From a virus (lineage: Duplodnaviria > Heunggongvirae > Uroviricota > Caudoviricetes): DNA of 7,620 nt. The notes beneath the pieces are model-generated. The model was not told the DNA's origin. It saw only the letters and a list, made by a program, of their open reading frames with translations, and did no database searches. Location: IMG/VR virus record IMGVR_UViG_2667528065_000006; one strand, given 5' to 3'. Position numbers and translations under genes: made by a program. How positions within the stretch are numbered: position 1 is the stretch's first letter; each line of letters starts with the position of its first letter. This document shows positions 311-364 of the stretch, in pieces.

Positions 311-364
311 TTGGAGTCAGTGAATAACTCAGGTATTGGAGTCAGTGAATAACTCAGGTATTGG
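311..364. repeat. Perfect 25-bp tandem duplication (2 copies plus a 4-bp partial third)
   Basis: ttggagtcagtgaataactcaggta occurs at 311-335 and again at 336-360, followed by ttgg (361-364). It lies in the divergent holin/porin intergenic region. Confidence 0.95.

Follow-up and report, generated by a model that had tools for sequence, protein, structure and literature searches.

The window analysed here, a stretch of 7,620 nucleotides, is one entire contig (AOQI01000203.1, 7,620 bp) of the draft assembly GCA_000397365.1 and represents a segment of a DLP12/PA-2-type lambdoid prophage. It carries the pinholin gene essD, the product of which is identical to that of K-12 and the relatives and which is the first gene of the lysis cassette, the untranslated leader of the late operon, the porin gene nmpC/lc on the opposite strand, and the Q-like antiterminator gene quuD. 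Further genes in the window are ylcG, rusA, ybcO, ninE and ybcN, followed by an alpha/beta hydrolase gene and the recombinase gene ybcK. The features around the 25-bp tandem array that is the subject of this analysis are as follows.

18-233, minus strand: essD, S21-type class II holin (pinholin), 71 aa, PF04971, from the list of open reading frames and RefSeq WP_000839596.1 at homologous loci
234-607, minus strand: untranslated lysis (late) operon leader, from the putative essDp start, transferred from K-12, to the essD ATG
311-335, no strand assigned: copy 1 of TTGGAGTCAGTGAATAACTCAGGTA, from Tandem Repeats Finder and an exact pattern match; a 25-bp insertion relative to UPEC132
336-360, no strand assigned: copy 2 of TTGGAGTCAGTGAATAACTCAGGTA, identical to copy 1
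361-364, no strand assigned: TTGG, right member of a 4-bp direct repeat (left member at 311-314), from the single-copy progenitor
388-420, minus strand: tR'-like terminator feature from a terminator scan, with the terminator-like hairpin AAACCCGCCGTCGAGCGGGTTT at 420-399 and a T-run
607-639, minus strand: putative essDp, -35 GAACTA at 639-634, 16-nt spacer, -10 TCACT at 617-613, start at ~607, by transfer of the K-12 motif
657-1772, plus strand: nmpC/lc porin moron
1961-2344, minus strand: quuD, Q-like antiterminator

On the transcribed strand, the order is the putative essDp (~607), the leader, the terminator (420-399), the two copies of the unit (360-311) and the essD ATG (233). The array lies 78-131 nt upstream of the essD ATG and downstream of the tR'-like terminator, and the duplication lengthens the stretch from the terminator to the ATG from 140 to 165 nt. 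The terminator is located at about +188 to +209 from the putative essDp start, a placement like that of lambda tR', and in 115 IMG/VR contigs among the matches listed its sequence does not vary and its distance from the unit is always 31 bp.

The essDp promoter of DLP12 is a Q- and RpoE-dependent late promoter, as cited in PMC7918800, where the essDp amplicon is given as spanning -121 to +650 and the primers as listed in the supplement. Mapping on K-12 MG1655 placed the 5' end of the forward primer at position 1177 of the K-12 locus (L008) and the reverse primer at ~407-428, which yields a 771-bp amplicon. Deduced from the primers of that source, the K-12 essDp +1 would correspond to position 1056 of the same locus, 6 nt past a GAACTA-N16-TCACT motif. 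This motif is also present in the window, on the minus strand at 639-613. It (with the start, 607-639) is oriented divergently to nmpC, at a distance of 18 bp from the nmpC ATG. Its architecture is that of an RpoE promoter (consensus GGAACTT-N16-TCTGA). The primer coordinates in PMC7918800, together with the motif, point to this site as the likely essDp of the window; given the location of the motif at the nmpC start, the putative late promoter would adjoin the start of the porin gene, not the Q gene.

Several other observations were made on the DNA around these features. At ~249-252, 16-19 bp upstream of the essD ATG, the similarity to lambdoid prophages with an essD-type holin but without nmpC comes to an end. 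Judging from where the similarity stops, this point is a mosaic junction, and the repeat unit forms one travelling module with the terminator, essDp and nmpC. The essD leader also has a common presence/absence polymorphism ~15 bp away from the array, in that the 16/17-bp segment at 280-296, GTATCGCAATAAAGGCA, is missing from K-12, from D217-5 and from 46 of 119 IMG/VR contigs (among the matches listed), and such a common indel so close to the array suggests no visible constraint on the length of the leader there. The 3' untranslated region of nmpC (1773-1935) contains two hairpins, at ~1792-1830 and, as a terminator, at 1911-1928, and had no Rfam match. IpeX, the porin-repressing RNA of DLP12/PA-2, reportedly maps to this region (Castillo-Keller et al. 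2006). Near the end of the window, at 7261-7283, there is an AT-rich 11-bp repeat, ATTTTTATTTA, in 2.1 copies with 91% identity.

Tandem Repeats Finder reported the array at 311-364 with a period of 25, 2.2 copies, 100% matches and 0 indels. The 25-bp unit is present as two identical head-to-tail copies without a spacer, followed by TTGG. A pattern search that allowed up to 3 mismatches found exactly two copies of the unit, at 311-335 and 336-360, each with 0 mismatches, compared with 0 in 200 shuffles. The sequence across the junction of the two copies is GGTATTGGAG, and the single-copy form reads ACAGATTTGGAG...GGTATTGGGTT. Copy 2 (336-360) matches base for base the single copy of UPEC132, K-12, PA-2 and others; the extra copy was scored as 311-335, the choice of the "new" copy between the two being arbitrary. 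With 7 C and 3 G, the unit is C-rich and G-poor on the transcript strand, and it holds a small imperfect inverted repeat, GAGTCA-N5-TAACTC, predicted to fold as a 6-bp RNA hairpin on the transcript. These data bear out what an earlier note had described, namely a perfect 25-bp tandem duplication at 311-364, placed 78-131 bp upstream of the pinholin ATG (essD, 233-18, minus strand) and between the holin start and a minus-strand terminator (hairpin and T-run at 420-399). Its assignment of the array to a DLP12-type late-gene leader also agrees with the essD annotation of the homologous loci and with the promoter mapping in K-12.

The copy number of the unit was then compared among relatives. The intergenic region was found in 2,661 of 5,426 complete E. 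coli genomes. A 64-nt query over both copies matched 1,791 complete E. coli genomes, only 16 of them at ≥80% coverage, and each of the 16 high-coverage matches was made up of two pieces that overlap within 39 bp of the genome (64 minus 25), i.e., of one copy. A 140-nt query gave the single-copy picture again in 2,408 E. coli genomes. The phage records (n = 28) and plasmid records (n = 5) contained one copy each and 0 two-copy alleles. The exact single-copy 44-mer was detected in at least 120 IMG/VR contigs, and the copy-copy junction was found in 0 of the 120 IMG/VR contigs among the matches listed. Exact scans of genome, viral and metagenome contig collections found no match to the 28-mer spanning the junction or to a second window-specific 30-mer. 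There was no copy-number variation among strains, as every other sequence in the genomes, the phages, the plasmids and the IMG/VR matches listed has one copy. By sequence comparison, the two-copy state is private to this window. Comparison with related prophages had been set beforehand as the check on which copy number is ancestral, and it returned one copy in every relative examined and no diverged two-copy allele. The same 16 genomes are also the nearest to the whole window (99.2-99.3% over 7.6 kb), and when nmpC alone was used they were still the best relatives (99.5%), with no closer one found.

The allele of the 16 complete genomes is 100% identical to the window minus one 25-bp unit and represents the exact single-copy progenitor. 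In a base-by-base comparison, the allele of UPEC132 (L005, NZ_CP040456.1) plus exactly one 25-bp unit gave the sequence of the window at the array. The progenitor reads ACAGAT-TTGG-AGTCAGTGAATAACTCAGGTA-TTGG-GTTATC, a 25-bp segment bracketed by a 4-bp direct repeat, and the two TTGG of the UPEC132-type single-copy allele lie exactly 25 bp apart. Of the earlier description of two copies plus 4 bp of a third, the two copies stand and the partial third copy does not, since the TTGG at 361-364 is already present in the single-copy relatives, which makes the "third copy" the right-hand TTGG of the progenitor. On the left, TTGG is rare and occurs in 2 of 120 IMG/VR contigs; the other 118 (among the matches listed) and K-12 contain TCGG, and the left tetranucleotide of PA-2 is TCGG/TCCG, not TTGG. 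The rarity of the left TTGG and its presence in the progenitor suggest that the duplication arose on a rare allele that offered a perfect microhomology. Such a pattern is what polymerase slippage is expected to produce. A 4-bp extension of microhomology is expected by chance with a probability of ~1/256.

The possible function of the array was examined by prediction. A consensus scan detected no sigma-70-like promoter on either strand in 234-420, and a new promoter made by the junction was rejected on the basis of this empty scan and of by-eye hexamers that matched at 3-4 of 6 positions at best. No Rfam match was found at an E-value ≤1 anywhere in the window, and a structured RNA or sRNA was rejected on this result and on the unremarkable folding of 300-375 on both strands (DNA folding z-scores of -1.4 and +0.4 for the two strands). 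A coding role was rejected, as nothing but two plus-strand frames of 28 and 38 aa, both starting with TTG, overlaps the array. An effect on the essD translation signals was also rejected, the predicted SD/AUG pairing being 0.604 with one copy and 0.606 with two. In predicted RNA folds, the terminator hairpin was the same with one or two copies, and with two copies the arms of the 6-bp minus-strand hairpin could also pair across copies. A CRP site was rejected, as CRP site 1 annotated in PA-2 maps to 424-444, outside the repeat.

The earlier note had offered two readings of the perfect identity, a very recent slip or a selected iterated protein-binding site. The recent slip is favoured by the single-copy relatives, the TTGG progenitor and the identical copies. 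The selected site found no support: the two-copy state is absent from all other genomes, phages, plasmids and metagenome contigs compared, the copies number only two, and a 17-bp length polymorphism is tolerated nearby. On these comparisons and predictions, the array is probably not a selected regulatory device, a conclusion that holds under every reading considered below except that of functional iteration. Its biological weight would be very small: it places 25 more untranslated nucleotides in the interval that separates the late terminator from the holin gene, and neither selection nor function is apparent.

The array is not the only private lesion on this contig. The window shows 41 differences from UPEC132, all of them in 311-2774, with full identity over 1-310 and 2775-7620. 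These differences include at least seven indel-type lesions seen in no other sequence, among them, besides the array, the following.

474-521: second 25-bp tandem duplication, 100% (Tandem Repeats Finder), the second copy ending after 23 nt
1693-1760 (1693-1758): in-frame 33-bp duplication in nmpC, period 33, 97% (Tandem Repeats Finder)
2507-2512: +G with two adjacent substitutions in ylcG, frameshift
2622-2626: G-to-C with +T in rusA, frameshift
2767-2774: +8-bp insertion AGAGGGAC in rusA, frameshift

Two further tandem duplications had been named in the earlier note, and both were recovered, at 474-521 (period 25, 100%) and 1693-1760 (period 33, 97%). The duplication at 474-521 is fused to a ~193-bp deletion/replacement relative to all relatives and is followed by an imperfect 20-bp repeat (539-560 versus 559-580, 17/22). 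This rearrangement (474-580), which was found in no other sequence, lies in the leader between essDp and the terminator and in the upstream region of nmpC, and it removes the promoter-proximal lc/nmpC CRP site annotated in PA-2 (ATTTGTGAAGTAGATCTCTAT). The 33-bp duplication in nmpC contains one mismatch, 3 nt before the junction, and adds 11 aa just before the C-terminal strand of the porin, giving a protein of 371 aa compared with 360 aa in the relatives. The 371-aa NmpC is a singleton among ~15 billion proteins. Six substitutions in nmpC relative to UPEC132 are all synonymous, and four of them are common to other natural alleles.

The three small ylcG and rusA lesions are absent from both UPEC132 and K-12. 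Natural alleles as donors of these patches were rejected, with no exact IMG/VR match and no closer E. coli allele, and a search of the window for a template of the small insertions gave no repeat longer than 9 nt. The indel lesions were all absent from the complete E. coli genomes (5,426), from the 120 IMG/VR contigs among the matches listed and from the IMG/VR scans. The variant NmpC (371 aa) and the variant RusA (57 aa) each occur on this one contig, with NCBI as the only source, and neither had an independent copy in the Logan read assemblies. Tandem duplications with a period of 12-60 and ≤1 mismatch were counted in the homologous segment of the 120 IMG/VR contigs (among the matches listed), which gave 0 in 302,585 bases versus three here, in agreement with the earlier remark that three duplications in 1.5 kb are unusual. 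With 0 in 302,585 bases, three independent neutral slips would be very unlikely, and a common cause, which would be either an artefact or one mutational episode, is needed on these sequence counts. The only unusual aspect of the array is this cluster of private lesions on the contig.

We propose that a C-to-T change (TCGG to TTGG) would have created the perfect 4-bp microhomology on a rare allele, and that polymerase slippage, or an equivalent sister-strand misalignment, between the two TTGG 25 bp apart would then have produced a second, abutting and identical 25-bp copy in the untranslated leader. The late transcript would simply be longer by 25 nucleotides, and neither the promoter nor the terminator nor the ribosome-binding region overlaps the array. 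We assign a probability of roughly 0.5 to this reading, i.e., a real, strain-private and very recent slippage duplication that is most likely functionless. It draws on the anatomy of the array, the single-copy relatives, the progenitor and the microhomology as read from the sequences. From these we infer the slippage mechanism and the presence of the second copy in the DNA of the cell rather than in the assembly only, and neutrality is suggested by the predictions.

A serious competitor, although one that we hold to be the weaker account, is an artefact of assembly or consensus calling, in which the DNA of the strain has one copy and the second copy and the other private lesions were made in building the contig, possibly when sub-contigs with overlapping ends were joined, when a gap was closed, or when a poor consensus was called over a segment that this prophage has in common with others. 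The earlier caveat about an assembly artefact gains weight from the fact that the private indels cluster on a draft contig. The window is a complete short contig of such an assembly, and all 41 differences, including the three duplications, the ~193-bp deletion/replacement and the three small frameshifting insertions, fall inside 311-2774. Two of the three small insertions carry adjacent substitutions and resemble complex patches, two unrelated duplications have exactly the same 25-bp period, and indels are far more frequent relative to substitutions than in ordinary divergence. The absence of the lesions from the complete genomes, the listed IMG/VR contigs and the contig collections, the lack of tandem duplications in the homologous contigs, the restriction of the variant NmpC and RusA to one contig with no Logan copy, and the synonymous nmpC substitutions, four of them in natural alleles, also fit an artefact. 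Other features of the array itself, however, are difficult to obtain in this way. It is far shorter than a read, and an assembler would normally need reads containing the junction. A simple abutting of contig ends would give two copies without the 4-bp TTGG microhomology, which chance would supply in ~1/256 of cases, and an artefact makes no prediction that the event should fall on the rare allele bearing that microhomology. The third duplication is 33 bp long, so that no single k-mer overlap covers all three.

Two other explanations accept the array as real. One, which we consider improbable, is that the array is one scar of a localized episode of error-prone repair or replication restart, with serial template switching on microhomology, that rewrote ~2.5 kb of prophage DNA from rusA to the essD leader; with the same low likelihood, this burst would also have made the 25-bp duplication with the ~193-bp deletion, the 33-bp nmpC duplication and the small ylcG and rusA insertions. 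The tight clustering of private lesions in an otherwise identical background is as expected from such an episode, and tandem duplications with 2-4 bp of microhomology are of the template-switching type. The duplication fused to a deletion, the imperfect local copy at 539-580, the substitution 3 nt from the 33-bp junction, the small insertions beside substitutions and the background rate of such duplications (0 in the 120 homologous contigs listed) point in the same direction. The small insertions lack an internal template, however, and a bad consensus would give an identical pattern. Such mutation bursts are not known as an established phenomenon in natural E. coli isolates. A selected functional iteration is the least probable explanation, and we regard it as very unlikely. 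The array would then be a doubled protein or RNA site, a change in access for Rho or RNase, or a copy-number (phase-variable) switch that tunes the lysis cassette. The position of the array directly past the terminator in the leader of the late operon, the predicted 6-bp RNA hairpin of GAGTCA-N5-TAACTC, the invariance of the segment from the unit to the terminator in relatives, and the C-rich, G-poor unit, which in principle would add Rho-loading sequence to the transcript, could be taken to favour it. Against this, there are two copies only and no other genome has more than one, so neither conservation nor copy-number polymorphism is seen; there is no promoter, no RNA family, an unremarkable folding z-score and an unchanged predicted accessibility of the ribosome-binding site; and the invariance of the unit, which extends to the flanking DNA of a module that spread recently, shows no covariation signal.

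The significance of the array differs among these explanations. As a slippage product, it would provide a textbook example of a duplication on one allele where a point change had made a perfect 4-bp microhomology, and, if real, it could mark the prophage allele of this strain. If the repair episode were true, the region would be a "chromoanasynthesis-like" footprint within 2.5 kb of prophage in a natural E. coli isolate. The lesion cluster serves as a quality flag, in that the nmpC, ylcG and rusA variants of AOQI01000203.1 should not be taken at face value.

Several known systems can be compared with the array. With iterons and operator arrays it shares only the direct repetition of a 20-25 bp unit; it differs from them in having two copies, no spacing pattern, an iteration that is unconserved in any relative, and no known cognate protein. 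Compared with an assembly join through an unmerged overlap, two of the duplications have 25 bp and the third has 33 bp, and the TTGG extension is unexpected from abutting. The lambda pR'-6S RNA-tR'-S region and the window share the order of putative promoter, leader, intrinsic terminator and holin gene, with the Q gene upstream, whereas in the window the porin moron nmpC/lc, which is encoded on the opposite strand, separates Q from the late promoter. The duplication falls into the interval from the terminator to the holin gene, for which no assigned function was found in the literature consulted. The upstream region of PA-2 lc (GenBank J02580), which has two annotated CRP sites, represents the same module with one copy of the unit and the same terminator. 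Its CRP site 1 is identical to 424-444 of the window; in contrast, the repeat is not among the annotated sites of PA-2, and CRP site 2 of PA-2 is missing from the window.

Among known kinds of mutation, the array comes closest to the ordinary microhomology-flanked tandem duplication, of which it would be a private instance, or else it is not real. Slipped-strand duplication between short direct repeats has its classic case in the CTGG frameshift hotspot of lacI. Compared with lacI, the unit here is 25 bp instead of 4 bp, and only one step, from one copy to two, is seen, in a draft contig. As in slippage duplications, the copies of the array are direct, abutting and identical, and the progenitor allele is bracketed by TTGG, which explains why the array ends in an apparent "partial copy" that is the second member of the repeat.
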